In this document: positions 6,905-51,738 of the stretch, piece by piece
Layout of the letters: each line of letters opens with the position of its first letter
Numbering within the stretch: position 1 is the first letter of the stretch
NCBI GenBank assembly: GCA_964016885.1
Contig: OZ024743.1
Span: 262,136,001-262,200,000 of the forward strand
Direction: 5' to 3'
DNA: 64,000 bases
Origin: Eledone cirrhosa
Taxonomy: Eukaryota
The notes under the pieces: model-generated
The model's input: the letters and a program-made list of their open reading frames with translations, nothing else
Databases searched by the model: none
What the model was told of the DNA's origin: nothing
Made by a program: the position numbers and the translations under genes

Positions 6905-6906
6905 TA

Positions 6907-7602
6907 GTATAAATGAACTAAGTGAGAAATTAGGAATAAGAGGGATCAGATGCTGTTTACTCAAGAGAAGACTATGTTGGTATGGCCACGTGATGCGCAT
7001 GAAAGACGACAGCTGTATAAAAAAGTGCTGGGCGATCAAAATTGATGGTAGTTACGGAGTAGGTATACCCAGAAAAACCTGGGACGATCTGATAAATTCC
7101 GACCTCACACTCTTGCACCTCTCTAAGACAATGTCACTGGACCGAGATCTTTGGCGCTACGCAGTAATACAGAAGACCCGCCTTGCCTATGTACAAAGAG
7201 AAACCTAGTCAGTAGGCACCTCTTAACCAAATATACACCCCAATCCACTTCCCCTACCCTATCCTCCCACTCCCATCAACACCACTCTCTCTCTATAAAG
7301 TTGGTACCACAACATCCAGTCCAAATAAATGAGATAAATGAGATCGAGATCGTGTAGGTGTCACGAGACAAAAACACACAGTCCATACTGTAATGTGACT
7401 GTGTAGGTAACACGGTAAAAAGTTCCCAGTTCCACACTGTAAATGTGGTTGGTGTTAGGAAGGGCATCCAGCCGTAGAAAACCTGCCAGATAGTCCTATA
7501 TGAGCGAGACACGGTCACCCGACCAACCTTGCCTCAAGTGGGACAACTCCCGTCTAACCCATGCTAGCGTGGAAAATGGACGTTAAACGAAGATGATGAT
7601 GA

Positions 7603-7605
<3 letters not shown>
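6907..7605 (+). mobile_element. 5'-truncated RTE LINE (C-terminal domain plus 3' UTR)
   Basis: Translation [32 protein letters not shown]...GIPRKTW matches the RTE C-terminus. (GAT)n tail, flanked by (TA)n. Confidence 0.9.
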
Positions 7606-7664
<59 letters not shown>

Positions 7665-11415: not shown

Positions 11416-11692
11416 ACTGTTTATTTTGCTTCCAGCTTCATAATGCTTAACAGATAATAGATATATTGGCCTATCCCTCCTTCCTTCCCCTAATAGGACA
11501 CTTGGTTATTTGTTCTATATCTCCCATCTTCATGCCCCCCCCCCCCACACACATACACTCAAATTTACATGCATAAACACTTGAATATACAGAAACACGC
11601 ACCCACTCCCATGTGGCCAGTTGTAAAAACTTTTGCCTAATCACTTCAACACAACAGGACAATCAACATCATCTCTAAGAGACTTATCTTTC

Positions 11693-13745
11693 ATCATCAT
11701 CATCATCATCGTTTAACGTCCCTGTTCCACGCTTGCATGGGTTTGGACGGGGGTTTTCCCACTTGAGGCAAGAGTGGTTGTCTTGCTCGCATAGGACTGT
11801 CTGGCGGGTTTTCTACAGCTGGATGCCCTTCCTAACACCAACCACATTTACAGTGTGGGACTGGGAGGTTTTTACCGTGTTGCCTACACGGCCACATTAC
11901 AGCGTGGACTGTGTGTTTTTTTGTCGTGACACCTACACGATCTCGTTTGTTTCGGCCTGGATGTTGTGGCACCAACATAACTTTGCATTGAAGGAGGCGG
12001 TGTGGATGGGGTGGGACGGGGGTGTATTTTGTTAGAGATGCCTACTGACTAGTAGGTTTTACTTTGTATTTAGGTAAGGCGGGTTTTCTCTGTTACTGAG
12101 TAACGCCAAAGGTCTCGGTCCAGTGACATTGTCTTGGAGAGGTGTAAGTGTGTGAGGTCGGAATTTATCAGCTCGTCCCAGGTTTTCCTGGGCCTGCCTA
12201 CTCCGTGGCTACCATCTATCTTTATTGCCCTGCACTTTGTTATACAGCTGTCGTCTTTCATGCGCATCACGTGACCATACCAACGTAGCCTTCTCTCGAG
12301 TAAACATCTGATCCCTCTTATTTCTAATTTTTCCCTTAGTTCGTTTATGCTTTGCCGTTCACGTATATTACTATTACACATCCAGCGGAGCATGCAAGCT
12401 TCGTTCCTCTCTAGTCTGCGTATATCCTCTGCACACAATGCCCAGGTCTCACTGCCATGCAACATTGCTGTTCGTATGCAGGCATCATACAACCTGCCTT
12501 TCATTTTTAGGGAGAACCCTTTAGCGGCTAATAGTGGTATAAGCTCTCTGAACTTTTTCCATCCAGTTCTGACTCTAGCTACTGTACTTTCAGCGCACCC
12601 TCCCCCACTGCTGATTTTGTCACCCAGGTAACGGAAGCTGTCCACTATTTCAGCAGGTTTGCTTTCAGGAATTCCCACTGTTCCTCTACCTTGTACGACT
12701 CTAATTGCTCTTCCTTACTGTCGAAAGCATCAAGTAATATGCTTTGAAATTTATTTCTGGCTGTGGGATCCTTTAGCTTCCATATTTTTCTCCTGAGGAT
12801 AGTCCTCTTCTGCTGTTTAGTACGTCTCGTCCTGACTATGAGGTTGCTAATTATCAGTCTATGTTGGGAGGTGCATTCTTCATGGGGGAGGGATTTAGTG
12901 TTTACAACAGACACTCTGTCACGTCTTCTGGTAAGGATATAATCTACCTGGCTGGTATGTTCTCCTGATCTGTAGGTGATCAAGGGATTGTCTCGTTTTT
13001 TTAAGTTAGTGTTACAGATAGTTAGGTTGTTCGCATCACAGAATTCCAGGATTCTGGAGCCTTCCTCGTTTCTAGTACCAAACCCATAGCCTCCGTGGAT
13101 TCCGTCATAGCCGTCACAATGTTGTCCAACGTGACCATTTAGGTCGCCAGCAATAATTATATAGTCACTGTCGATTATTTGGGAGGTAGTGAGCATCAGT
13201 GTCTCATAGAATCTGTCTTTTATAGCGCCAGGCAGTCCGGATTGGGGCGCGTATGCAGATATTACTGTCACGGTAGTTCTGTTTAGAACAAGTCTTATTT
13301 TAATTATTCTGTCATTCACTCTATTTTCATCTATTATCTTATCCACCCATTTTTCTGCTAACATGATTCCTACCCCACCTATCCCATTGTCATTCCCCAC
13401 CCAGAAAAGCTTATAGCAACGTTTTTTACCCACAATGAATCTAGCAGACCCGCCCCTCCACCTGGTCTCTTGGATACAGCAAACATCAACCTCCTTACGT
13501 TCAAGCATTTCTACAACCTCGTTAGAGCGGCCTTTTAAGGTGCCTACGTTCATGGTACCAACTCTGAAGTTTTGGATTGTGTTTGAAGGATGGGGCGCAG
13601 GGAGGGGTGAGGGGAATGAGTTTGGGGTTATGTTGGCCATCCGCGGCCGAAACAAATAGGGGGGGGGGCCTTGCCCCTTCGTCCGGCAGCATGAGGTGAA
13701 TTTGTCGTTATCTTTGGCATTGTCATCGAGTGTCCAGATTCTTCA
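11693..13745 (-). mobile_element. RTE LINE subfamily 1 retaining its 5' region, with a ~1.5-kb internal deletion removing RT
   Basis: APE ORF 12645-13655 (VGTMNVGTL, CIQETRW, SAYAPQ, GDLNGHVG, SQVDYIL, SQHRLI) is joined directly to IVDSFRYLG and the C-terminus (12070-12650). 3' UTR and (CAT)n tail at 11693-11710. Confidence 0.95.
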
Positions 13746-14105
13746 GACTCTCCAGAAATTCCTTAGTCCATCCATCATATCGAAAAGCAGCCAGTAGTGA
13801 TAGCATAGGCCGTTGACTTGTGATTGGTCCAAATAGTAAAGGTGGAGAGTGGGGGCGGGAGGGAGGGATATGGGATAATCTTTAATCCACCAGTACTGTA
13901 CTTCAGAGCTAGTTCCTGTTTTCATGAAACTCAATTTTTCCACCTCTATAAGTATTTATCATAATCTATGGAACCACATAATGATTTCTGATTTAGACAT
14001 TAGGCCAACAATTTGGTGGTGGGAGAGAAAGTTAATTAAATCGACTCCAGTGCATTATTTTAATTTTATTTTATTGACACCGTAAGGATGAAGGACAAAG
14101 CTTAA

Positions 14106-20765: not shown

Positions 20766-22859
20766 GTAGGCAGGAGGAGAGTAACATGGTGGTGGAACAG
20801 TAGGGTGGAGGGGTCAATTAAGGCCAAAAAGCAGGCTTGGAAAGTATGGCGGGATGGGGGAAGTAGAGTAGACTATCAAGTGGCCAGGAGGGAAGCTAGG
20901 AGAGAAGTGTACTTAGCAAGAAGGGAAGCTGAGGAAAGAAAGTTCAAGCATGTTCTACAACGCGATGACCAAAAACGTGAGGTGTTCAGGATTGCTAGGC
21001 AATGCGTCAAGGAAAACCGTGATATTGTCGGGGAGAAGTGTGTACTTAACGATGATGGCATACTTGCCGTCACCGACACTGATAAGAAGGTAGCTTGGAA
21101 GTGTCACTATGAAAGGCTACTAAATGAGGAGAATAAATGGGAGAAAGACAGTCTCCCCCATATCGACCCAATAGAGGGACCAGCAGTGTTAGTCGAGGGG
21201 AGTATAATAAGTAAGGCAATCAAGGATATGAAGACGGGTAAGGCGGCTGGGCCTTCGGAAATAGTTGCTGAGATGCTGAAGGCATCTGGCACGGTGGGAC
21301 ACACCATGGTCACCCGCATAGTTAACCAAGTCGTACAGAATGGGGTTGTTCCGAAGGACTGGCATAACAGCATCATCGTTAACTGTTATAAGGGTAAAGG
21401 AGACGCCCTAGATAGGAGTAACTATAGAGGCATTAAATTAATCGACCAGGTCATGAAGGTCACGGAAAAAGTAATAGCGCAACTAATCAGAGAGAGAATT
21501 GACCTAGATGAAATGCAGTTCGGGTTTGTGTCAGGCAAAAGCACCACAGACGCTCTTTTCATTGTACGACAACTACAGGAGAAGTACCTAGCTAAAGGTA
21601 AACCCCTCTACTTAGCTTTTGTCGACCTGGAGAAAGCCTTCGACAGAGTCCCCCGCTCCATTATCTGGTGGGCTCTTAGAAAACTAGGCGTTGACGAATG
21701 GCTTGTGAGGGCTATACAAGCCATGTATAAAGAAACAGTCAGCAAGGTTAGAATTAACAACGAATATAGTGAAGAGTTTAGCGTAAAAGTTGGCGTCCAT
21801 CAGGGCTCTGTTCTCAGCCCCCTACTATTTATTATTGCCCTTCAGGCTATAACAGAGGAGTTCAAGACAGGCTGCCCATGGGAACTCCTATACGCAGACG
21901 ACCTGACACTCATAGCGGAATCAATGGCCGAGCTAGAGAAGAAATTCCAAACATGGAAGCACGGCCTAGAGTCAAAAGGACTTAAAATTAACCTGGCTAA
22001 GACCAAAGTTCTAGTTTGTAGGAAAGAAAACAAGGCGGCGGTCCCTTCTGGGAAATGGTCGTGCTCGGTGTGTAGGAAAGGCGTAGGTAGAAACTCCATT
22101 TTATGTCCTAAATGCAAAGTATGGGTGCATAAAAGATGTAGTGGGATCACAGGTAAGCTAACTAAGAACATAGATTTTACATGTGGCCGGTGTTCTGGTG
22201 CAATAAGTAGCAGCAAGTGCCCACAAAATACTAGCTCTTTCAATTGCGCAGAGGGTTCTATAGAAATAGTGGACAGCTTCCGTTACCTGGGCGATAAAAT
22301 CAGCAGTGGGGGAGGGTGCTCTGAAAGTACTGTAGCTAGAGTCAGAACTGGTTGGAAAAAGTTCAGAGAGCTTATACCACTATTAGCTGCTAAAGGGTTC
22401 TCCCTAAAAATGAAAGGCAGGTTGTACGATGCCTGCATACGAACAGCAATGTTGCATGGTAGTGAGACCTGGGCATTGTGTGCAGAGGATATACGCAGAC
22501 TAGAGAGGAACGAAGCTTGCATGCTCCGCTGGATGTGTAACAGTAATATACGTGAACGGCAAAGCATAAACGAACTAAGGAAAAAATTAGAGATAAGAGG
22601 GATCAGATGTTGTTTACTCGAGAGAAGGCTGCGTTGGTATGGACACGTGATGCGCATGAAAGTCGATAGCTGTATAACAAAGTGCAGGGCAATAAAGATA
22701 GACGGTAGCCACGGAATAGGCAGACCTAGAAAAACCTGGGATGAGCTGATAAACTCCGACCTCACACACTTACACCTCTCCAAGACAATGTCACTGGACC
22801 GAGACCTTTGGCGGTACTCAGTAACAGAGAAGACCCGCCTTGCCAGTAGGCATCTCTAA
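20766..22859 (+). CDS. 5'-truncated RTE LINE ORF: RT with inserted PHD finger plus C-terminal domain, uninterrupted
   Basis: [74 protein letters not shown]. The ORF-track extension to 20502 is spurious read-through of flanking repeats. Confidence 0.93.
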   Translation, partial: VGRRRVTWWWNSRVEGSIKAKKQAWKVWRDGGSRVDYQVARREARREVYLARREAEERKFKHVLQRDDQKREVFRIARQCVKENRDIVGEKCVLNDDGILAVTDTDKKVAWKCHYERLLNEENKWEKDSLPHIDPIEGPAVLVEGSIISKAIKDMKTGKAAGPSEIVAEMLKASGTVGHTMVTRIVNQVVQNGVVPKDWHNSIIVNCYKGKGDALDRSNYRGIKLIDQVMKVTEKVIAQLIRERIDLDEMQFGFVSGKSTTDALFIVRQLQEKYLAKGKPLYLAFVDLEKAFDRVPRSIIWWALRKLGVDEWLVRAIQAMYKETVSKVRINNEYSEEFSVKVGVHQGSVLSPLLFIIALQAITEEFKTGCPWELLYADDLTLIAESMAELEKKFQTWKHGLESKGLKINLAKTKVLVCRKENKAAVPSGKWSCSVCRKGVGRNSILCPKCKVWVHKRCSGITGKLTKNIDFTCGRCSGAISSSKCPQNTSSFNCAEGSIEIVDSFRYLGDKISSGGGCSESTVARVRTGWKKFRELIPLLAAKGFSLKMKGRLYDACIRTAMLHGSETWALCAEDIRRLERNEACMLRWMCNSNIRERQSINELRKKLEIRGIRCCLLERRLRWYGHVMRMKVDSCITKCRAIKIDGSHGIGRPRKTWDELINSDLTHLHLSKTMSLDRDLWRYSVTEKTRLASRHL

Positions 22860-23220
22860 CAAAATACACCCCGTCCCGCCACCACCCCCACCCCATCCAC
22901 ACCACCCCGTTCTATGTAAAGTTATGTTGGTGCCGCGCCATCCAGGCCGAAACAAATGAGATCGTGTAGGTGTCACGACAAAAAAACACACAGTCCACGC
23001 TGTAATGTGCCCGTGTAGGCAACACGGTAAAAACCTCCCAGACTCACACTGTAAATGTGGTTGGTGTTAGGAAGGGCATCCAACTGTAGAAAACCTGCCA
23101 GACAGTCCTATGCGAGCAAGACAATCACTCTTGCCTCAAGTGGGACTACCCCCGTCCAAACCCATGCAAGCATGGAACACGGACGTTAAACGTTGATGAT
23201 GATGATGATGATGATGATGA
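20766..23220 (+). mobile_element. RTE LINE subfamily 1 copy with 20-bp TSD
   Basis: 3' UTR and (GAT)n tail. TGGTGACCTGACATACATAT at 20672-20691 and at 23371-23390. Confidence 0.92.
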
Positions 23221-23717: not shown

Positions 23718-24140
23718 GAAGGCACATGGCTTAGTGGTTAGAGCATTGGGCTTGCAATCGAAAGGTTGTGAGTTCAATTCTCAGACCGGGTGATGTGTTG
23801 TTTCCTTGAGCAAGACAGTTTATTTCACATTGCTCCAATTTACTCAGCTGTAGAAATGAGATGATAGGACTGGCGCCCTATCATTCCACTGCAAAGTGGT
23901 CGTGGAGGTGCCACGGCAAAAAAGGCACCCAGCCCACACTGTAAAGTGGACGTGTAGGCGCCACGGAAAAAAAGCATCCAGCACTCACTGTAAATGAGGT
24001 TGGTGTTAGGAAGGGCATCCAGCTGTAGAAATCAAGCCAAAATCAGTTCCTGTATGAGCAAGACACGGCTCAGAACAGGACAATCCGTCTAACCCATGCT
24101 AGCGTGGAAGAACGGATGTAAAACGGTGATGATGATGATG
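23718..24140 (+). mobile_element. SINE family S2 with RTE-derived tail (type a)
   Basis: tRNA-like head plus CORE-like segment, then a 3' half shared with the RTE subfamily-2 3' UTR, ending in (GAT)n. Confidence 0.9.
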
Positions 24141-28592: not shown

Positions 28593-28632
<40 letters not shown>

Positions 28633-28633
<1 letters not shown>

Positions 28634-28972
28634 CATCATCATCATTTCATTTTATGTCCACTTTTCCCTGCTTGCAAGGGTGGGACGGCAACTGATTCTG
28701 GCTTGATTTCTACAGCTGGATGCCCTTCCTAACACCAACCTCATTTACAGTGACTGCTGGGTGCTTTTTTGCCGTGGCACCTCCACGACCACTTTGCAGT
28801 GGAATGATAGGGACCCCAGTCCCTATCATCTGATTTCTACAGCTGAGTAAACTGGAGGAATGTGAAATAAAGTGCCTTGCTCAAGGAAACAACACATCGC
28901 CTGGTCTGCGAATTGAACTCACAACCTTTCGATTGCAAGGCCAATGCTCTAACCACTAAGCCATGTGCCTCC
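28633..28972 (-). mobile_element. SINE family S2 with RTE-derived tail
   Basis: Reverse complement of the 23.7-kb type, with a shortened tail. Confidence 0.9.
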
Positions 28973-29509
28973 ATTATATATATATATATAATGAATGAAA
29001 ATAAATCACTATGTTGCGTGTAAAATACTATAGGGATCATCGTAAGTACATCTCAAGTTCTCCAAACAACTACATACATACAGATTTTTATGTAGATATG
29101 TATCACCTACGCATATATATGTATATATACACAAAGCGAAAATAAATCCTACTATTTTGTGTGAGAGACTCTAAAGTGACCATTGTACATACATTGTAAG
29201 CACTTTACACTGCATGCACTCTGGATATAGACTTCATTTCCGGCCTACATACGTCTCTTAAATTAAACGTGTGTAGATCTTTTTGTTGTGGCCTAGCGAT
29301 AGGTACTAGAGAAAGTGGAGATCCTAGTCATGGGTTCAATCCTGTTCCAGAGTACATACATACAACACTTAGGAAAACGGAAACAAAAACATTTTATTTA
29401 TCTACTTATTGGCCCTTGTGGCCAATAAATGAAACTATTATTTATCTACTTGACAAGTGTGTGCTATACTTACGCATATCTGTTTGTTTTCTTCTTGTTA
29501 TATTGTTTG

Positions 29510-32097: not shown

Positions 32098-32115
32098 ATT
32101 CCTCATCATCCTCAT

Positions 32116-32628
32116 CATTTTACGTCCGCTTTTCCCTGCTTCCAAGGGTGGGACGGGAACTGATTCTGGCTTGGTTTCTACAGATGGATGCCCTTCCTAA
32201 CACCAACCTCATTTACAGTGAGTGCTGGGTGCATTTTTCCGTGGCACCTACACAACCATTTTGCAGTGGAATGATAGGGACCCCAGTCCCTATCATCTCA
32301 TTTCTATAGGTGAGTAAACTGGAGCAATGTGAAATAAAGTGTCTTGCTCAAGGAAACAACACATCACCCGGGTGATGTGTTGTTTCCTTGAGCAAGACAC
32401 TTTATTTCACATTGCTCCAGTTTACTCAGCTGTAGAAATGAGATAATAGGGACTGGGGTCCCTATCATTCCACTGCAAAATGGTCGTGGAGGTGCCACGG
32501 CAAAAAAGCACCCAGCACTCACTGTAAATGAGGTTGGTGTTAGGAAGGGCATCCAGCTGTAGAAATCAAGCCAGAATCAGTTCCCGTCCCACCCTTGCAA
32601 GCAGGCAGGGAAAAGTGGACGTAAAATG
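32116..32628. repeat. Spacer-less ~255-bp-arm palindrome of headless SINE S2
   Basis: 32116-32369 is the reverse complement of 32370-32628 (about 10 mismatches). Centre CACCC|GGGTG. Confidence 0.93.
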
Positions 32629-36681: not shown

Positions 36682-39104
36682 TCATCATCATCATCATCAG
36701 GTTTAGCATCCGTGTTCCACGCTTGCATGGGTTTGGACGGGGGTTTTCCCACTTGAGGCAAGAGTGGTTGTCTTGCTCGCATAGGACTGTCTGGCGGGTT
36801 TTCTACAGTTGGATGCCCTTCCTAACACCAACCACATTTACAGTGTGGGGCTGGGAGGTTTTTACCTGTTGCCTACACGGCCACATTACAGCGTGGACTG
36901 TCTGGCGGGTTTTCTACAGCTGGATGCCCTTCCTAACACCAACCACATTTACAGTGTGGGGCTGGGAGGTTTTTACCGTGTTGCCTACACGGCCACATTT
37001 ACAGCGTGGACTGTGTGTTTTTTTTGTCGTGACACCTACACGATCTCATTTGTTTCGGCCTGGATGTTGTGGGACCAACATAACTTTACATTGAAAGGGG
37101 CGGTGTGGATGGGGTGAAGGTGGTGGGACGGGGGTGTGTTTTGATAGAGAAGCCTACTGACTGTAGTAGGTTTTTACTTTGTATTTAGGTAAGGCGGGTC
37201 TTTATTACTGAGTACCGCCAAAGGTCTCGGTCCAGTGACATTGTCTTGGAGAGGTGTAAGTGTGTGAGGTCGGAATTTATCAGCTCGTCCCATGTTTTTC
37301 TGGGTCTGCCTACTCCGTGGCTACCGTCTATCTTTATTGCCCTGCACTTTGTTATACAGCTGTCGTCTTTCATGCGCATCACGTGACCGTACCAACGTAG
37401 CATTCTCTCGAGTAAACAACATCTGATCCCTCTTATTTCTAATTTTTTCCTTAGTTCGTTTATGCTTTGCCGTTCACGTATATTACTATTGCACATCCAG
37501 CAGAGCATGCAAGCTTCGTTCCTCTCTAGTCTGCGTATATCCTCTGCACACAATGCCCAGGTCTCACTGCCATGCAGCATTGCTGTTCGTATGCAGGCAT
37601 CGTATAACCTGCCTTTCATTTTTAGGGAGAACCCTCTAGCGGCTAATAGTGGTATAAGCTCTCTGAACTTTTTCCATCCAGTTCTGACTCTAGCTACTGT
37701 ACTTTCAGAGCACCCTCCCCCACTGCTGATTTTGTCACCCAGGTAACGGAAGCTGTCCACTATTTCTATAGAACCCTCTGCGCAGTTGAAGGAGCTAGTA
37801 TTTTGTGGGCACTTGCTGCTACTTATTGCACCAGAGCACCGGCCACATGTAAAATCTATGTTCTTAGTTAGCTTACCTGTGATCCCACTACATCTTTTAT
37901 GCACCCATACTTTGCATTTGGGACATAAAATGGAGTTTCTACCTATGCCTTTCCTACACACTGAGCATGGCCATTTCCCAGATGGGACCGCCGCCTTATT
38001 TTCTTTCCTACAAACTAGAACTTTAGTCTTAGCCAGGTTAATTTTAAGGCCTTTTGATTCTAGGCTGTGCTTCCATGTTTGGAATTTCTTCTCTAGTTCG
38101 GTCATTGATTCAGCTATGAGCGTTAGATCATCTGCGTATAGGAGTTCCCATGGGCAGCCGGTCTTGAACTCCTCTGTTATAGCCTGAAGGGCAATAATAA
38201 ATAGTAGGGGGCTAAGAACAGAGCCCTGATGGACACCAACTTTTACGCTAAACTCTTCACTATATTCGTTGTTAATTCTAACCTTACTGACTGTTTCTTT
38301 ATACATGGCTTGTATAGCTCTCACAAGCCATTCGTCAATACCTAGTTTTCTAAGAGACCACCAGATAATGGAACGGGGGACTCTGTGGAAGGCTTTCTCC
38401 AAGTCGACGAAAGCTAAGTATAGGGGTTTACTTTTAGCTAGGTACTTCTCCTGTAGTTGTCGTACAATGAAAAGAGCGTCTGTGGTACTTTTGCCTGACA
38501 CAAACCCGAACTGCATTTCATCTAGATCAATTCTCTCTCTGATTAGTTGCGCTATTACTTTTTCCGTGACCTTCATGACCTGGTCGATTAATTTAATGCC
38601 TCTATAGTTACTCCTATCTAGGGCATCTCCTTTTCCCTTATAGCAGTTAACGATGATGCTGCTACGCCAGTCCTTCGGAACAACCCCATTCTGTACGACT
38701 TGGTTAACTATCCGGGTGACCATGGTGTGTCCCACCGAACCAGATGCCTTCAGCATCTCAGCAACTATTTCCGAAGGACCAGCCGCCTTACCCGTCTTCA
38801 TATCTTTGATTGCCTTGCTTATTGTACTACCCTGGACTAACACTGCTGGTCCCTCTATTGGGTCGATGTGGGGGAGACTGTCTTTCTCCCATTTGTTCTC
38901 CTCATTTAGAAGCCTTTCGTAGTGACACTTCCAAGCTACCTTCTTATCAGTGTCGGTGATGGCAAGTATGCCATCATCGTTAAGTACACACTTCTCCCCG
39001 ACAATATCACGGTTTTCCTTGACACATTGCCTGGCAATCCTGAACACCTCACGTTTTTGGTCCTCACGTTGTAGAACATGCTTGAACTTTCTTTCCTCTG
39101 CTTC

Positions 39105-39235: not shown

Positions 39236-40414
39236 GTTTTGCGAGGTTTTTGATATGAAATGAGTGTGTCGAAACAAATATTGTTATACTTGGGGAGGGT
39301 CATATTTGTGTAATATTGCCAGAATTAATAACAGAACACACTCACTGTTTGGTTGGTTTTCGCTTTTCGCTTCTGTGTCTTTTATATCACTAATCTAATT
39401 TATTCGGTCCTCAATGTTGCCATTGACTGACCAACGGTCAAAAATAATACAGATACAGTATAGACACAAACACATATATATAGTTTATCAAAGTTCTTTT
39501 GTTGCACATCTGCAACATCGTCAGTGGTGCTATTGTTTCCTCCCGTAACATTGTATTTTCTACGCCATCTTTATTTAGTCTGTTTATGTATTTATTTATT
39601 TGTTTATTTTATTTTGTCTTCTTTGCGCATGCGTTTGCGTGTGTGTATAGTGTTTTGTTTGATGTGTGTTCGTGATTGGGTGACTGTGTATTGGTTAATG
39701 TATTCTATCTTTACTAGTGTGTGTTTATATGTGTTACACGACGGTAACATAGACAACATAGAAATTAGAATAATATCTAAACATAGAAATGACCCAGCAG
39801 ATAGGCAAATCAGAGAGGCCAGTGAAATAGAACTTAGAAGGCCAAGGCTAAACAGAAAGAATGAATGGAATAACAACAACACCCAAACAAACAACACTGA
39901 CCTAAGAGAAGTATAAATAAATAAATAGATAAATAAATAAATACATACACAAGCACAATAACAACAAACACATATAAACACACTAGTAAAGATAGAATAC
40001 ATTAACCAATTCACAGTCACCCAATCACGAACACACATCAAACAAAACACTATACACACACGCAAACGCATGCGCAAAGAAGACAAAATAAAATAAACAA
40101 ATAAATAAATATATAAACAAACTAAATAAAGATGGCGTAGAAAATACAATGTAACGGGAGGAAACAATAGCACCACTGACGATGTTGCAGATGTGCAACG
40201 AAAGAACTTTGATAAACTATATATATTTGTTTGTGTCTATATTGTATCTGTATTATTTTTGACCGTTGGTCAGTCAATGGCAACATTGAGGACCGAATAA
40301 ATTAGATTACCGATATAAAAGACACAGAAGCGAAAAGCGAAAACCAACCAAACAGTGAGTGTGTTCTGTTATTAATTCTGGCAATATTACACAAATATGA
40401 CCCTCCCCAAGTAT

Positions 40415-40421
<7 letters not shown>
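39236..40421 (+). mobile_element. Penelope-like element: 3' GIY-YIG fragment plus pLTR, preceded by an inverted pLTR
   Basis: ~455-bp inverted arms at 39279-39735 and 39967-40421. The spacer encodes NIEIRIISKHRNDPADRQIREASEIELRRPRLNRKNEW (GIY-YIG C-terminal E..I....P.LN motif). (TA)n flanks. Confidence 0.85.
40172..40213 (+). ncRNA. Minimal type I hammerhead ribozyme
   Basis: ACCA-CTGACGA-T-GTTGCA-GATG-TGCAAC-GAAA-GAACTT-TGAT. Identical at 48286-48327. The inverted-arm copy (39487-39528) has GAAA changed to AAAA. Confidence 0.65.
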
Positions 40422-40465
<44 letters not shown>

Positions 40466-42214: not shown

Positions 42215-45200
42215 TGGGCAGATAAGATAATAGACGTAAATAGAGTGAACGACAGAATAATTAAAATACGACTTGTCCTCAATAGAACTACGGTGACAGT
42301 AATATCTGCGTACGCACCCCAATCCGGACTGCCCGGCACTATAAAAGACAGATTCTATGAGACACTGATGCTAACTACCTCCCAAATATCCGACAGTGAC
42401 TATATAATTATCGCAGGCGACCTAAATGGTCACGTTGGACAACATTGTGACGGCTACGACGAAATCCATGGAGGCTATGGGTTTGGTACTAGAAATGAGG
42501 AAGGCTCCAGAATCCTGGAATTCTGTGATGCAAATAACCTAACTATCTGTAACACTAACTTCAAAAAACGTGACAATCACCTGATCACCTATAGATCCGG
42601 GGAACACACAAGCCAGGTAGATTATATCCTTACCAGAAGACGTGACAGAGTGTCTGTTGTTAACACTAAATCCCTCCCCCATGAAGAATGCACCTCCCAA
42701 CATAGACTGATAATTAGCGACCTCATAGTCAGGACGAGACGTACTCGACAACAGAAGAGGACTATCCTCAGGAGGAAAATATGGAAGTTAAAGGACCCCA
42801 CAGCCAGGAATAAATTTCAAAGCATATTACTTGATGCTTTCGACAGTAAGGAAGAACATTTAGAGTCGGACAATATAGAGGGAGAGTGGGAATTTCTGAA
42901 AGCAAACCTGCTGTTGGCGACAGACGAGGTCTGTGGCTGGAGCAGGCCTGTAGGCAGGAGGAGAGTAACATGGTGGTGGAACAGTAAGGTGGAGGGGTCA
43001 ATTAAGGCCAAAAAGCAGGCTTGGAAAGTATGGCGGGATGGGGGAAGTAGAGAGGACTATCAAGTGGCCAGGAGGGAAGCTAGGAGACAAGTGTACTTAG
43101 CAAGAAGGGAAGCTGAGGAAAGAAAGTTCAAGCATGTTCTACAACGCGATGACCAAAAACGTGAGGTGTTCAGGATTGCTAGGCAATGCGTCAAGGAAAA
43201 CCGTGATATTGTCGGGGAGAAGTGTGTACTAAACGACGATGGCACACTTGCCATCACCGACGCTGATAAGAAGGTAGCTTGGAAGTGTCACTATGAAAGG
43301 CTTCTAAATGAGGAGAATAATTGGGAGAAAGGCAGTCTCCCCCATATCGACCCAATAGAGGGACCAGCAGTGTTAGTCGAGGGGAGTATAATAAGTAAGG
43401 CAATCAAGGATATGAAGACTGGTAAGGCGGCTGGGCCTTCGGAAATAGTTGCTGAGATGCTGAAGGCATCTGGCACGGTGGGACACACCATGGTCACCCG
43501 CATAGTTAACCAAGTCGTACAAAACGGGGTTGTTCCGAAGGACTGGCATAGCAGCATCATCGTTAACTGTTATAAGGGTAAAGGAGACGCCCTAGATAGG
43601 AGTAACTATAGAGGCATTAAATTAATCGACCAGGTCATGAAGGTCACGGAAAGAGTAATAGCGCAGCTAATCAGAGAGAGAATTGACCTAGATGAAATGC
43701 AGTTCGGGTTTGTGTCAGGCAAAAGTACCACAGACGCTCTTTTCATAGTACGACAACTACAAGAGAAGTACCTAGCTAAAGGTAAACCCCTCTACTTAGC
43801 TTTTGTCGACTTGGAGAAAGCCTTCGACAGAGTCCCCCGCTCCATTATCTGGTGGGCTCTTAGAAAAACTAGGCGTTGACGAATGGCTTGTGAGGGCTAT
43901 ACAAGCCATGTATAAAGAAACAGTCAGCAAGGTTAGAATTAACAACGAATATAGTGAAGAGTTTAGCGTAAAAGTCGGCGTCCATCAGGGCTCTGTTCTC
44001 AGTCCACTACTATTTATTATTGCCCTTCAGGCCATAACAGAGGAGTTCAAGACAGGCTGCCCATGGGAACTCCTATACGCAGACGACCTGACACTCATAG
44101 CGGAATCAATGGCCGAGCTAGAGAAGAAATTCCAAACATGGAAGCACGGCCTAGAGTCAAAAGGACTTAAAATTAACCTGGCTAAGACCAAAGTACTAGT
44201 TTGTAGGAAAGAAAACAAGGCGGCGGTCCCTTCTGGGAAATGGTCGTGCTCGGTGTGTAGGAAAGGCGTAGGTAGAAACTCCATTTTATGTCCTAAATGC
44301 AAAGTATGGGTGCATAAAAGATGTAGTGGGATCACAGGTAGGCTAACTAAGAACATAGATTTTACATGTGGCCGGTGCTCTGGTGCAATAAGTAGCAGCA
44401 AGTGCCCACAAACTACTAGCTCTTTCAATTGCGCAGAGGGTTCTATAGAAATAGTGGACAGCTTCCGTTACCTGGGCGATAAAATCAGCAGTGGGGGAGG
44501 GTGCTCTGAAAGTACTGTAGCTAGAGTCAGAACTGGTTGGAAAAAGTTCAGAGAGCTTATACCACTATTAGCTGCTAAAGGGTTCTCACTAAAAATAAAG
44601 GCAGGTTGTACGATGCCTGCATACGAACAGCAATGCTGCATGGCAGTGAGACCTGGGCATTGTGTGCAGAGGATATACGCAGACTAGAGAGGAACGAAGC
44701 TTGCATGCTCCGCTGGATGTGTAACAGTAATATACGTGAACGGCAAAGCATAAACGAACTAAGGAATAAATTAGAGATAAAAGGGATCAGATGTTGTTTA
44801 CTCGAGAGAAGGCTACGTTGGTATGGACACGTGATGCGCATGAAAGTCGATAGCTGTATAACAAAGTGCAGGGCAATAAAGATAGACGGTAGTCACGGAA
44901 TAGGCAGACCTAGAAAAACCTGGGACGAGCTGATAAACTCCGACATCACACACTTACACCTCTCCAAGACAATGTCACTGGACCGAGACCTTTGGCGGTA
45001 CTCAGTAACAGAGAAGACCCGCCTTACCTAAATATATAGTAAAACCTACTCCAGCCAGTAGGCATCTCTAACAAATACACCCCGTCCCACCACCCCCACC
45101 CGATCCACACCACCCCGTTCTATGTAAAGTTATGTTGGTGCCAGCGCCATCGAGGCCGAAACAAATGAGATCGTGTAGGTGTCACGACAAAAAAACACAC

Positions 45201-45425
45201 AGTCCACGCTGTAATGTGGCCGTGTAGGCAACACGGTAAAAACCTCCCAGACCCACACTGTAAATGTGGTTGGTGTTAGGAAGGGCATCCAACTGTAGAA
45301 AACCTGCCAGACAGTCCTATGCGAGCAAGACAATCACTCTTGCCTCAAGTGGGACTACCCCCGTCCAAACCCATGCAAGCGTGGAACACGGACGTTAAAC
45401 GCTGATGATGATGATGATGATGATG
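42215..45425 (+). mobile_element. Near-full-length RTE LINE subfamily 1 with two frameshifts
   Basis: ORF pieces 42245-43879, 43803-44687 and 44606-45031 give APE, RT, PHD and C-terminus. Frameshifts at about 43865 and 44595. (GAT)n tail. Confidence 0.95.
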
Positions 45426-48742: not shown

Positions 48743-51681
48743 TGACGAACTTAAGGATAGATTTTACGAGTTCCTAATGCACACTACTGCTCTAACAAAC
48801 GACAATGACTTCCTAATCATCGCAGGAGATTTTAACGGACACGTAGGTAAACACTGTGACGGCTTCAATAGAGTCCATGGAGGTCATGGGGTTGGCACAA
48901 GAAATGAGGAAGGATTCAGACTTCTAGAATTCTGCGACGCCAATGACATGTCGATATGTAACACAAACTTCAAAAAACCCGACAACCACCTGATCACCTA
49001 GTCAGATAGATTTTATCCTCATCAGAGGACGTGACAGATGGACGGTCGTAAACACCCTAGTGAGGAATGTACCTCCCAACATAGCTTAGTTGTCAGCGAC
49101 CTCACGGTCAGAACTAGACGAACCTGGAAACAGAGGCCAACCTGGAGAAGAAAGATCTGGAAGCTGAAAGACCCCTCAGCCAGTAACAGATTTAAAGATA
49201 TTTTACTCAACGCCTACGACAGTAAAGAAGAACAGATAGAGACATTCAATGTAGAAGAGCACTGGGAGTTCCTAAAAAATAACTTACTAGAGGCGACGGA
49301 TGAGGTCTGTGGCTGGAGTAAGACCACAAGCAGGAGGAGAGTGACTTGGTGGTTGAACAATAAGGTAGATGAGGCAGTTAAGGCCAAGAGACAGGCATGG
49401 AAAGAATGGAAGAACGGGGGAGCAGGGTATATTACATAGAGACCAAGAGGGAAGCTAGGCGACAAGTATACTTAGCTAGGAGGGAAGCAGAGGATAGAAA
49501 ATTCAAGCATGTTTTGCAACGTGACGACCAGAAACAGGAGGTGTTCAAGATTGCGAGGCAGTGTGTTAGAGAGAATTGTGATGTCATTGGAGAGAAGTGT
49601 ATCCGGAATGGTAAAGGTGAGCTTGCCCTCACAAGTGCTGAGAAAGAAAGATGCATGGAAGAGCCATTATGATAGATTACTAAATGAGGAGAATGCATGG
49701 GAAGAAGAGACCCTACCCCAAGTAGACCCTATAGAGGGGCCAGCAGCAGCGTAGTAAGTAAGGCAATCAAAGATATGAAGATGGGGAAGGCAACCGGTCC
49801 ATCGGGTATAGCTGCCGAGATGCTGAAGGCATCTGGGTCTGTAGGTCACACTATAACCACACGTATTGTTAACCAGGTAATACTAGAAGATGTCATACCA
49901 AAAGATTGGTGCAGTAGCATCATTGTCAACTGCTACAAAGGTAAAGGTGATGCACTAGATAGAGGAAACTATAGAGGTATAAAGCTGATGGACCAGGTCA
50001 TGAAAGTAACAGAAAGAGTTATAGCACAGTTGATTAGTGACCGGGTGAAAATAGATGAGATGCAATTTGGGTTTGTACCAGGAAGAGGCAGTTACAGGAA
50101 AAGTACCTAGCTAAAAGTAAGCCACTCTACCTGGCATTCGTCGATCTCGAGAAAGCCTTTGACAGAGTTCCACGTGCTGTAATCTGGTGGGCTCTTAGAA
50201 AACTAGGAGTAGATGAATGGCTTGTGAAAGCTGTACAAGCCATGTATAGGGGAGCAGTCAGCAAAGTTAGGATTAGCAATGAGTATAGCGAGGAATTTAG
50301 CGTACAGGTCGGTGTCCACCAGGGCTCTGTTCTTAGCCCTCTCCTGTTCATTATAGTTTTGCAGGCAATAACGGAAAAGTTTAAGACCGGATGTCCATGG
50401 GAACTCCTATATGTGGATGATCTCACACTTATAGCTGAATCTATGGTGGAACTAGAGAAGAAATTCCAAACATAGAAGCTGGCACTAGAAAGAAAGGGTC
50501 TCAAAGTCAACCTGACAAAGACTAAGGTTCTTGTAAGTAGACGAGAAAACAGAACCCAGATCCCCTCAGGGAGATGGCCTTGCTCAGTATGTAGCAAAGG
50601 TGTAGGTAGCAACTACATCCTCTGCCCCAAATGCAAACAATGGGTACACAAGAGATGTAGTGGGATCTCAAGAAGCTTAACTAAGAATGTAGGCTTCACA
50701 TGTAGCAGCTGCGCTGGGACAGCAAGCAGCAAACAGCCACAGGAAACAAGCACCACCAAACTTTGGGAGAGCTCTGTAGAAACAGTAGACAGCTTCTGCT
50801 ACCTTGATAACCGAATTAGCAGTGGAGGTGGGTGTTCAGTACAATAACTAGGGTAAGAACGGGATGGAAGAAGTTCAGGGAGCTATTCCCACTGCTAGCT
50901 GCAAAAGGCTTTTCCCTCAAAAGAAAGGCAGACTATATGATGCGTGTATATGAACAGCAATGTTACTTGGTAGTAAGACCTGGGCGCTCTGTGTAGAAGA
51001 CTTACGCAGATTAGAAAGAAACAAAGCTTGCATGCTCCGATGGATGTGTAATAGTAATATACGCGAACGGCAAAGTATAAACGAACTGAGAGAGATACTG
51101 AGCATAAGAGGAATCAAATGATGTGTGCAGGAGAGGAGGTTGCGTTGGTATGGACATGTGATGCGTATGAAGGATGACAGCAGCATAAAAATGAAAAAGG
51201 TGCAGAGCACTAGAAGTCGATGGAAGCCATGGAGTGGGGAGACCCAAGAAGACCTGGGGATGAGGTGATAAAAGCCGATCTTACCCAATTGCACCTCTCA
51301 ACGGCAATGACACACGACCGTGGCCTCTGGCGTCACGTAGTAATGCAGAAGACCCGATTTCCCACGGGAACAAGCCGAAGCTGAAACATATAGACAATAT
51401 GCCCCCCATCCCCTCCCACTGCAAAGTGGTCATGGAGGTGCCACGCAAAAAAGCACCCAGCCCACACTGTAAAGTGGACGTGTAGGCGCCATGGAAAAAA
51501 AGCACCCAGCACTCACTGTAAATGAGGTTGGTGTCAGGAAGGGCATCCAGCTGTAGAAATCAAGCCAGAATCAGTTCCTGTATGAGCAAGGCAAGGTCAG
51601 CCGACTGGACACTGCCCACAACAGGATAACTCGTCTAATCCATGCTAGCATAGAAGAACGGACGTAAAACGGTGATGATGA
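48743..51681 (+). mobile_element. RTE LINE subfamily 2, decayed
   Basis: Fragments [35 protein letters not shown] and WYGHV, with many frameshifts and stops. (GAT)n tail. Confidence 0.92.
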
Positions 51682-51738
51682 TATATATATATATATATAC
51701 ATACACATACATATATACATACATATATATATATAATG

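Follow-up and report, generated by a model that had tools for sequence, protein, structure and literature searches.

Complementary 5′ and 3′ segments in one clade of octopus RTE-type LINEs, their origin and their possible pairing

The locus and its element copies

The window, by which we mean the whole 64-kb stretch of Eledone cirrhosa DNA under study, carries several copies of single-ORF non-LTR elements with an AP endonuclease, a reverse transcriptase (RT) and a (GAT)n tail. Their one long ORF combines the endonuclease and RT domains (Pfam PF03372/PF14529 and PF00078) with no separate ORF1 and is open over 1041-1110 aa in several copies; (GAT)n microsatellite tails and frequent 5′-truncated copies are further features of these elements. 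Their assignment to the RTE clade goes by this architecture, by a first-pass annotation of the window and by general knowledge of the group. A Cys/His-rich PHD-like finger follows the RT domain at ~22060-22200 (+) of the window (Pfam PF00628, 24.2 bits, at the cut-off). No HDV-like ribozyme was among the 19 Rfam matches (E<=1) in three loci (L334, L037, L178), outside which the true 5′ end may fall.

The copy of central interest belongs to subfamily F1a and lies on the reverse strand at 11690..13877. It has lost ~1.5 kb internally at 12650/12649, retains both of its ends, and is possibly flanked by a 6-bp target duplication. Two short segments near these ends, hereafter the 5′ and 3′ arms, are complementary. 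The 5′ arm of the first-pass annotation was confirmed, at 13660-13627 (-), and all four 3′ arms that it listed in the window were recovered; a fifth, diverged arm at 7297-7333 (+) had been missed. The features are as follows:

11690..13877 (-): F1a copy, 5′-truncated within its 5′ UTR and with an internal deletion
13718..13720 (-): probable start AUG (MPK/MSQ), present in all nine subfamily majorities
13659..13668 (-): poly-C tract, length-variable in F1a; it shifts the frame in the window copy
13627..13660 (-): 5′ arm of the duplex; coding, N-terminal linker S/Y-L-F-R-P-R-M-A-N-I-T
13638..13640 (-): internal AUG within the duplex, formerly taken for the start codon; ACG in F1b
12650..13565 (-): AP-type endonuclease portion of the ORF (Pfam PF03372 and PF14529)
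11942..11981 (-): the cis partner, or 3′ arm; a tandem unit of the 3′ UTR in remodelled form, which begins ~275 nt ahead of the (GAT)n tail
11690..11941 (-): remaining 3′ UTR, with ~49-nt tandem units, the GGAAGGGCATCC block (11821-11839), a terminal motif and the (GAT)n tail
22921..22960 (+): 3′ arm of a 5′-truncated F1b-type copy (20.8-23.2 kb)
37045..37084 (-): 3′ arm of a 5′-truncated copy closest to the F1c-type L281
45129..45169 (+): 3′ arm of a young F1b copy (42215-45420)
7297..7333 (+): 3′ arm, diverged, in an F3 copy (6906-7606); the starting point of the covariation test
48744..51690 (+): F2 copy that lacks the 3′ arm; negative control

In the window's F1a copy the cis duplex reaches -41.9 kcal/mol with main helices of 12+5+11 bp, and the outermost A of its 5′ arm is a private variant of a position that is C in the family. 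The helices of 13, 6 and 10 bp originally described here had joined this F1a 5′ arm to an F1b-type 3′ arm; that combination was not found in cis, and the F1b 5′ arm differs. The window also holds tRNA-headed SINE-like elements with an F2-type tail and without the 3′ arm (~23750-24140, 28630-28990 and 32100-32610), including a head-to-head pair at 32.1-32.6 kb, and a 455-nt inverted repeat (39278-39732 / 39968-40422; 97% complementary, spacing 235 nt) to which a piece near 47.6-48.3 kb is related.

Extent and origin of the complementarity

The complementarity of the two arms is real, family-wide and far beyond chance. A typical F1a duplex comprises ~31 bp in four helices (3+12+5+11 bp) at -45.2 kcal/mol, which ranks first among the 167 element windows scored against the 3′ UTR and is reached by none of 132 dinucleotide shuffles (mean -29.5, sd 3.1), lying ~5 sd beyond them; the 5′-3′ match as originally reported is upheld by both measures. 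The 5′ segment, which might have been unique to the one copy first described, recurs widely. In the 3.0-Gb host genome it gave 2687 first-look candidates, all 40 of those scored matching at 96-100%. Both arms stand in cis, ~3.2 kb apart, in 19 of 20 fetched F1a copies, as they do together in 17 of 20 F1b copies and also in F1c, F6 and F3. The duplex of F1b, the youngest family, is weaker than that of F1a, and that of F3 (-21.5) is no better than background. F2, a family of 1895 first-look candidates, has neither arm in the 20 copies examined, which bears out the earlier observation that the second subfamily lacks the 3′ segment, and a search of F2 and F8 for an alternative 5′-3′ complement found none common to the copies.

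Subfamily majorities were taken after the removal of five atypical copies (L226, L229, L274, L305 and L316), and copies with an arm spacing of <3 kb were left out of the trees. A comparison of arm and flank conservation gave no discrimination, the neighbouring 3′ UTR repeats being equally conserved among subfamilies; hence the near-invariant outer helices and the variable bulge to which attention had been drawn, while present, say little about constraint on the duplex.

As to the origin of the arms, the position orthologous to the 3′ arm is occupied by a plain tandem unit in F4 (22 copies aligned), the family that the tree joins to the arm-bearing clade as its sister. Relative to this unit the 3′ arm has a deletion and two patches of replaced sequence, and it is precisely these patches that are complementary to the 5′ arm. 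The retained middle of the unit supplies the bulge and the central helix, and no arm-bearing subfamily has lost the bulges. The linker of the outgroup F8 holds a homologue of the 5′ arm (SFQTQKANT versus LFQTRMTNK and LFRPRMANI), an alignment that identifies the 5′ arm as an older coding linker; the 3′ array of F8 is of another kind and contains no complement to this homologue. For F4 itself no 5′ end turned up in cis, those fetched belonging to F8, so that the age of the 5′ arm is read from F8 alone. Because F4 has the plain unit and F8 has a 5′ arm homologue without a complement, the arms are not simply inverted copies of each other. As reconstructed from these comparisons, the match was built de novo on the stem of the clade from two different ancestral sequences, ~16 matching bases arising in two patches on a stem of 0.065 substitutions per site. 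So many matching changes on a short branch suggest templated patch copying, strong selection or both, and under either process the two regions are likely to have met.

Other rearrangements were seen at the ends of these elements. In the old family F8 (L429, L433, L440) the 3′ UTR tandem array is longer and different, with the same terminal block at its end, and one old copy has a fold-back inversion of ~55 bp (86% match) at its 5′ junction (L353, 251-377). The GGAAGGGCATCC block, which occurs in the 3′ UTR of F1, F2, F3, F4, F6 and F8, stands upstream of the ORF in one F5 copy with a very short 3′ UTR (L178 (-), near 1398). The long 3′ UTR may accordingly be a captured bipartite 5′+3′ piece, as far as one F5 copy can tell, an adjacent insertion at that place being the alternative.

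Reading frame, covariation and 5′ truncation

All nine subfamily majorities have in common an AUG that lies 49-60 nt upstream of the 5′ arm and is likely, from its conservation, to be the start codon. Translation upstream of the endonuclease gives the linker N-terminus MTMSQIKINSPP in frame in 23 of 27 F3 copies, MPKIKTNSPH in F6 and F1b and, when the variable poly-C tract is in frame (~21 of 52 F1-like copies), MTMPKITTNSPH in F1a. This tract (window 13659-13668) arose within the F1a coding linker. Because of it, over half of the F1-like copies read no longer have the upstream AUG in frame, a disruption that may in part be assembly error. The frame of the linker thus places the duplex AUG internally, at residue ~19-21 or later, and in all arm-bearing F1b copies read (18 and 26, in two sets) it is replaced by ACG. 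That AUG, which begins MANITP, had been called the first in-frame one; it is so only because the poly-C tract of the window copy (13668-13659) shifts the frame, and the family ORF starts upstream.

Starting from the diverged arm at 7297-7333, we arrived at F3 (85% identical), F6 (91%), F1c and F1b, and these sister families appear to hold some covariation between the arms. Two pairs underwent double changes, one from A-U to G-C and the other from A-U to C-G via mismatches. On the ORF tree, F3 and F6 have A-U at the former (pair 7), F6b and F1 have G-C, and copies with G.U sit basal to the G-C clades; among the 86 copies classified out of 95 (the nine unclassified being omitted), this pair is G-C in 43, A-U in 36, G.U in 3 and A.C in 4 in cis, that is, Watson-Crick in 79. 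The latter (pair 14) forms the series A-U (F3), C.U (F6), C.C (F1c) and C-G (F1a). Two further positions alternate between Watson-Crick and G.U. In F1b the middle of both arms has changed and re-paired in a shifted register, the outer helices being unchanged, and its 5′ arm favours its own 3′ arm (-34.8 versus -31.8 with the F1a 3′ arm). On the other side of the ledger stand seven pair-breaking lineage-level changes, and four of seven 5′ arms (F1c, F6b, F6a and F3) pair better with the 3′ arm of another family. A perfect complement predicted for the F6 3′ arm had only one match in a genome-wide pattern search, and this prediction failed.

Neutral simulation of pair-improving events, started from a root of our own reconstruction, gave p 0.003-0.009 when all events were counted and p 0.07-0.14, which is not significant, when probable recombinant repeats were counted once. 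Since F6b shares derived indels with F1, the conservative count is the apt figure. On the covariation that the first-pass annotation had suggested testing in sister families, the evidence is divided: the two double-change pairs and the full count speak for it, and the conservative figure and the seven breaking changes speak against it. When contigs of four other organisms were set against one copy (L313), coverage of the arms was slight, a single contig extending over each arm, in different runs.

The 3′ arm has also been lost. Six F3b copies among 20 loci lack it, and five of these form one clade (support 0.96) that also contains one arm-bearing copy; subfamily F3b spread after losing the arm. 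F1b is very young (40 of 40 matches 100% identical over 346 nt; 517 exact 26-mer matches) and, by this identity, likely still active. Its 5′ part resembles F6 and its 3′ part F1, so that it may have arisen by recombination.

Predicted duplex formation depends on the folding model. With the ends joined, the mean pairing is 0.85 in F1a, 0.71 in F6, 0.45 in F1c and 0 in F1b, F6b and F3; the near-full-length (3.8-kb) MFE structure has the duplex formed in F1b (28 nt) and absent in F1a. Sense and antisense strands, compared under RNA and DNA parameters, showed no preference and about equal stabilities, so that the RNA and the cDNA are both candidates for the paired molecule.

The only functional-looking signal is a cluster of 5′ truncations in F1b. 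In a first set, 4 of 18 copies were truncated 12-40 nt upstream of the arm. The interval had been picked after viewing this set, and an independent replicate was therefore used: there, 4 of 27 truncations fell 17-44 nt upstream of the arm (expected 0.83, p 0.010), with none inside the arm and none in the next 85 nt. Pooled, 8 of 45 lie 12-44 nt upstream of the 5′ arm (p 5e-5), at +6 to +38 from the conserved AUG. Because the cluster sits between this AUG and the arm, it could stem from looping of the cDNA, from ribosome pausing, from trimming of the RNA or from some feature local to F1b. None of 25 F1a/c-like copies, a control that excludes the window's own copy, has a truncation in the interval (Fisher p 0.044), despite the strongest duplex, and among 29 copies of the F2 control none is truncated within 70 nt downstream of the AUG. 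The F1a and F1b 5′ UTRs (L035, L322, L333-L338) contain repeated, family-specific blocks of several hundred bases, which look like a monomer-like structure with switching of 5′ ends; many boundaries near -220 to -260 and -479 proved to be monomer variants and were rejected as truncations.

Possible roles and known systems

The reading we favour, held with belief and doubt in about equal measure, is that the complementary arms of this one clade pair and hold the ends of the element together as an optional aid to retrotransposition, and not as a cover for the start codon. The arms would meet physically in the element RNA or in the first-strand cDNA, and a chance seed (GGAUG/CAUCC, GGAC/GUCC) would have been extended by templated patch copying, by selection or by both. 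An elongating ribosome would open the duplex, which could close again on untranslated RNA, or else on cDNA close to where priming occurs; pairing there could affect the site of the 5′ junction and would modestly aid or shape retrotransposition. The pairing is dispensable and lineage-specific: F3b amplified without the 3′ arm and F2 has neither arm, so it is not strictly needed for transposition, and on the same grounds an obligatory form of the proposed switch between translation and reverse transcription is unlikely. The pairing may or may not favour full-length templates, the other role that had been suggested for it.

The principal competitor, to which we give a substantial but minority share of belief, takes the match to be a neutral by-product, one or two template switches having copied inverted patches of the 5′ linker into the 3′ UTR tandem unit. 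The mechanism behind such template-switch patch copying would be quasi-palindrome-type conversion. The match would since have decayed, with occasional re-conversion and recombination between subfamilies mimicking compensation. The ~16 matching bases on so short a stem are indeed reached more easily by copying than by stepwise selection; the loss in F3b, the decay in F3 and F1b, the seven breaking changes and the conservative p-value all fit, as do the signs of inter-subfamily recombination, and the fold-back inversion of L353 shows that the RT copies inverted templates. This account sits less well with a 7-nt bulge, a 2x1 loop and a single bulge that stay unconverted in every subfamily majority, with the restoration of pair 14 at one base in two steps, and with the replicated truncation cluster of F1b. 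Moreover, patch copying across 3.2 kb itself requires the ends to meet.

It is improbable, though the F1b truncations give it some purchase, that the duplex acts as a brake on translation, leaving the AUG unmasked and stalling ribosomes in the first 15-20 codons, so as to limit ORF output or make the RNA available to the RT; RNA 5′ ends a short way before the arm would then result from the stalled ribosomes or from decay that they trigger. The arm begins 49-60 nt past the AUG, the F1b truncations fall before it, and the F2 control lacks them. However, elongating ribosomes unwind helices of this kind, the F1a/c-like copies are absent from the cluster, and the duplex is dispensable. From the flaviviruses comes one point in favour of such a brake, in that circularisation inhibits initiation there (PMC6765113).

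The masking originally proposed, in which the initiator AUG lies concealed in the duplex and the RNA is accordingly either translated or reverse-transcribed, we regard as very improbable. F1-like copies in which the upstream AUG has lost the frame through the poly-C tract could start at the internal AUG; but the upstream AUG is kept in all subfamilies and is in frame in most F3 copies, and in the youngest family, F1b, the supposed initiator is ACG. A chance match is barely credible: the longest perfect helix (12 bp), taken alone, has E ~1.8 within one element, and a second 12-bp inverted match lies inside the ORF, but the full four-helix match stands far outside the shuffles and first among the scored windows, and both remodelled patches match the 5′ arm.

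Returning to the pairing of the ends as an optional aid, a bolder form of it, which we think doubtful though worth stating, is that the arms are a cyclization signal of a non-LTR element, new within one clade, that loops the front of the element to its priming end and sets where RT finishes and the 5′ junction falls. If this doubtful extension were correct, the arms would be the first example in a LINE of a cis-signal that positions the 5′ junction, with its evolutionary steps still readable in the genome. The matter bears on how LINEs complete their 5′ end and on why RTE elements so often retain both ends. The natural variants, in which the duplex is strong, weakened, re-registered, deleted or was never present, occur in nearly identical families and form a series for testing looping against yield and truncation; if true, this would be one of the rare long-range structures whose emergence, here out of two ancestral sequences unrelated to each other, can be followed. 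In the literature searched, with most subscription papers and the Repbase notes outside its scope, nothing came to light on end pairing of non-LTR or RTE elements, an absence that is unproven; the accessible parts of two octopus papers (PMC9115989, PMC13282606) make no mention of it.

Among known elements, RTE-2_OV of Octopus vulgaris has a single ORF with endonuclease, RT and zinc finger, a microsatellite tail and recent activity (Petrosino 2022, PMC9115989, in its accessible part). By description, which is the basis of this comparison, it shares the ORF layout, the tail and the recent activity with the present LINE, but its 3′ UTR is described as mostly microsatellite, unlike the tandem-unit 3′ UTR seen here. 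Bipartite non-autonomous RTE elements and SINEs often retain a 5′ piece together with the 3′ end, for a reason unknown; in the available text of that survey, complementary-strand matches were removed from the analysis and no pairing was proposed (Kojima 2018, PMC5786205). Like these, 9 of the 95 both-arm copies here are internally deleted, a raw count without a control rate. The bipartite pieces, however, are the 5′ UTR and the extreme 3′ end as far as that text goes, whereas the arms are a coding linker and a mid-3′ UTR unit.

The cyclization signals of other elements are instructive both in their likeness and in their difference, as far as the excerpts of the cited papers describe them. The CYC5 segment of Ty1 is situated in GAG. 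Its pairing with CYC3 is described as critical for reverse transcription and transposition, and it lies beside the tRNA primer-binding site (PMC3681743, in part). The octopus LINE resembles Ty1 in having short complementary arms near both ends of the RNA, the 5′ arm just within the coding region; it differs in that Ty1 is an LTR element with tRNA priming and strand transfer, whereas the LINE is non-LTR, is primed at the target DNA and has no primer-binding site, and in that its pairing is limited to one clade and can be lost. Flavivirus cyclization is essential and conserved, and the RNA polymerase that it serves binds at the 5′ end (PMC6765113, in part). In contrast, the pairing in the octopus LINE is dispensable, recent and known from sequence alone, with its 5′ arm downstream of the likely AUG; yet it shares with the viral system, as presented there, a long-range 5′-3′ pairing near the start of the ORF that has been proposed to separate translation from copying.
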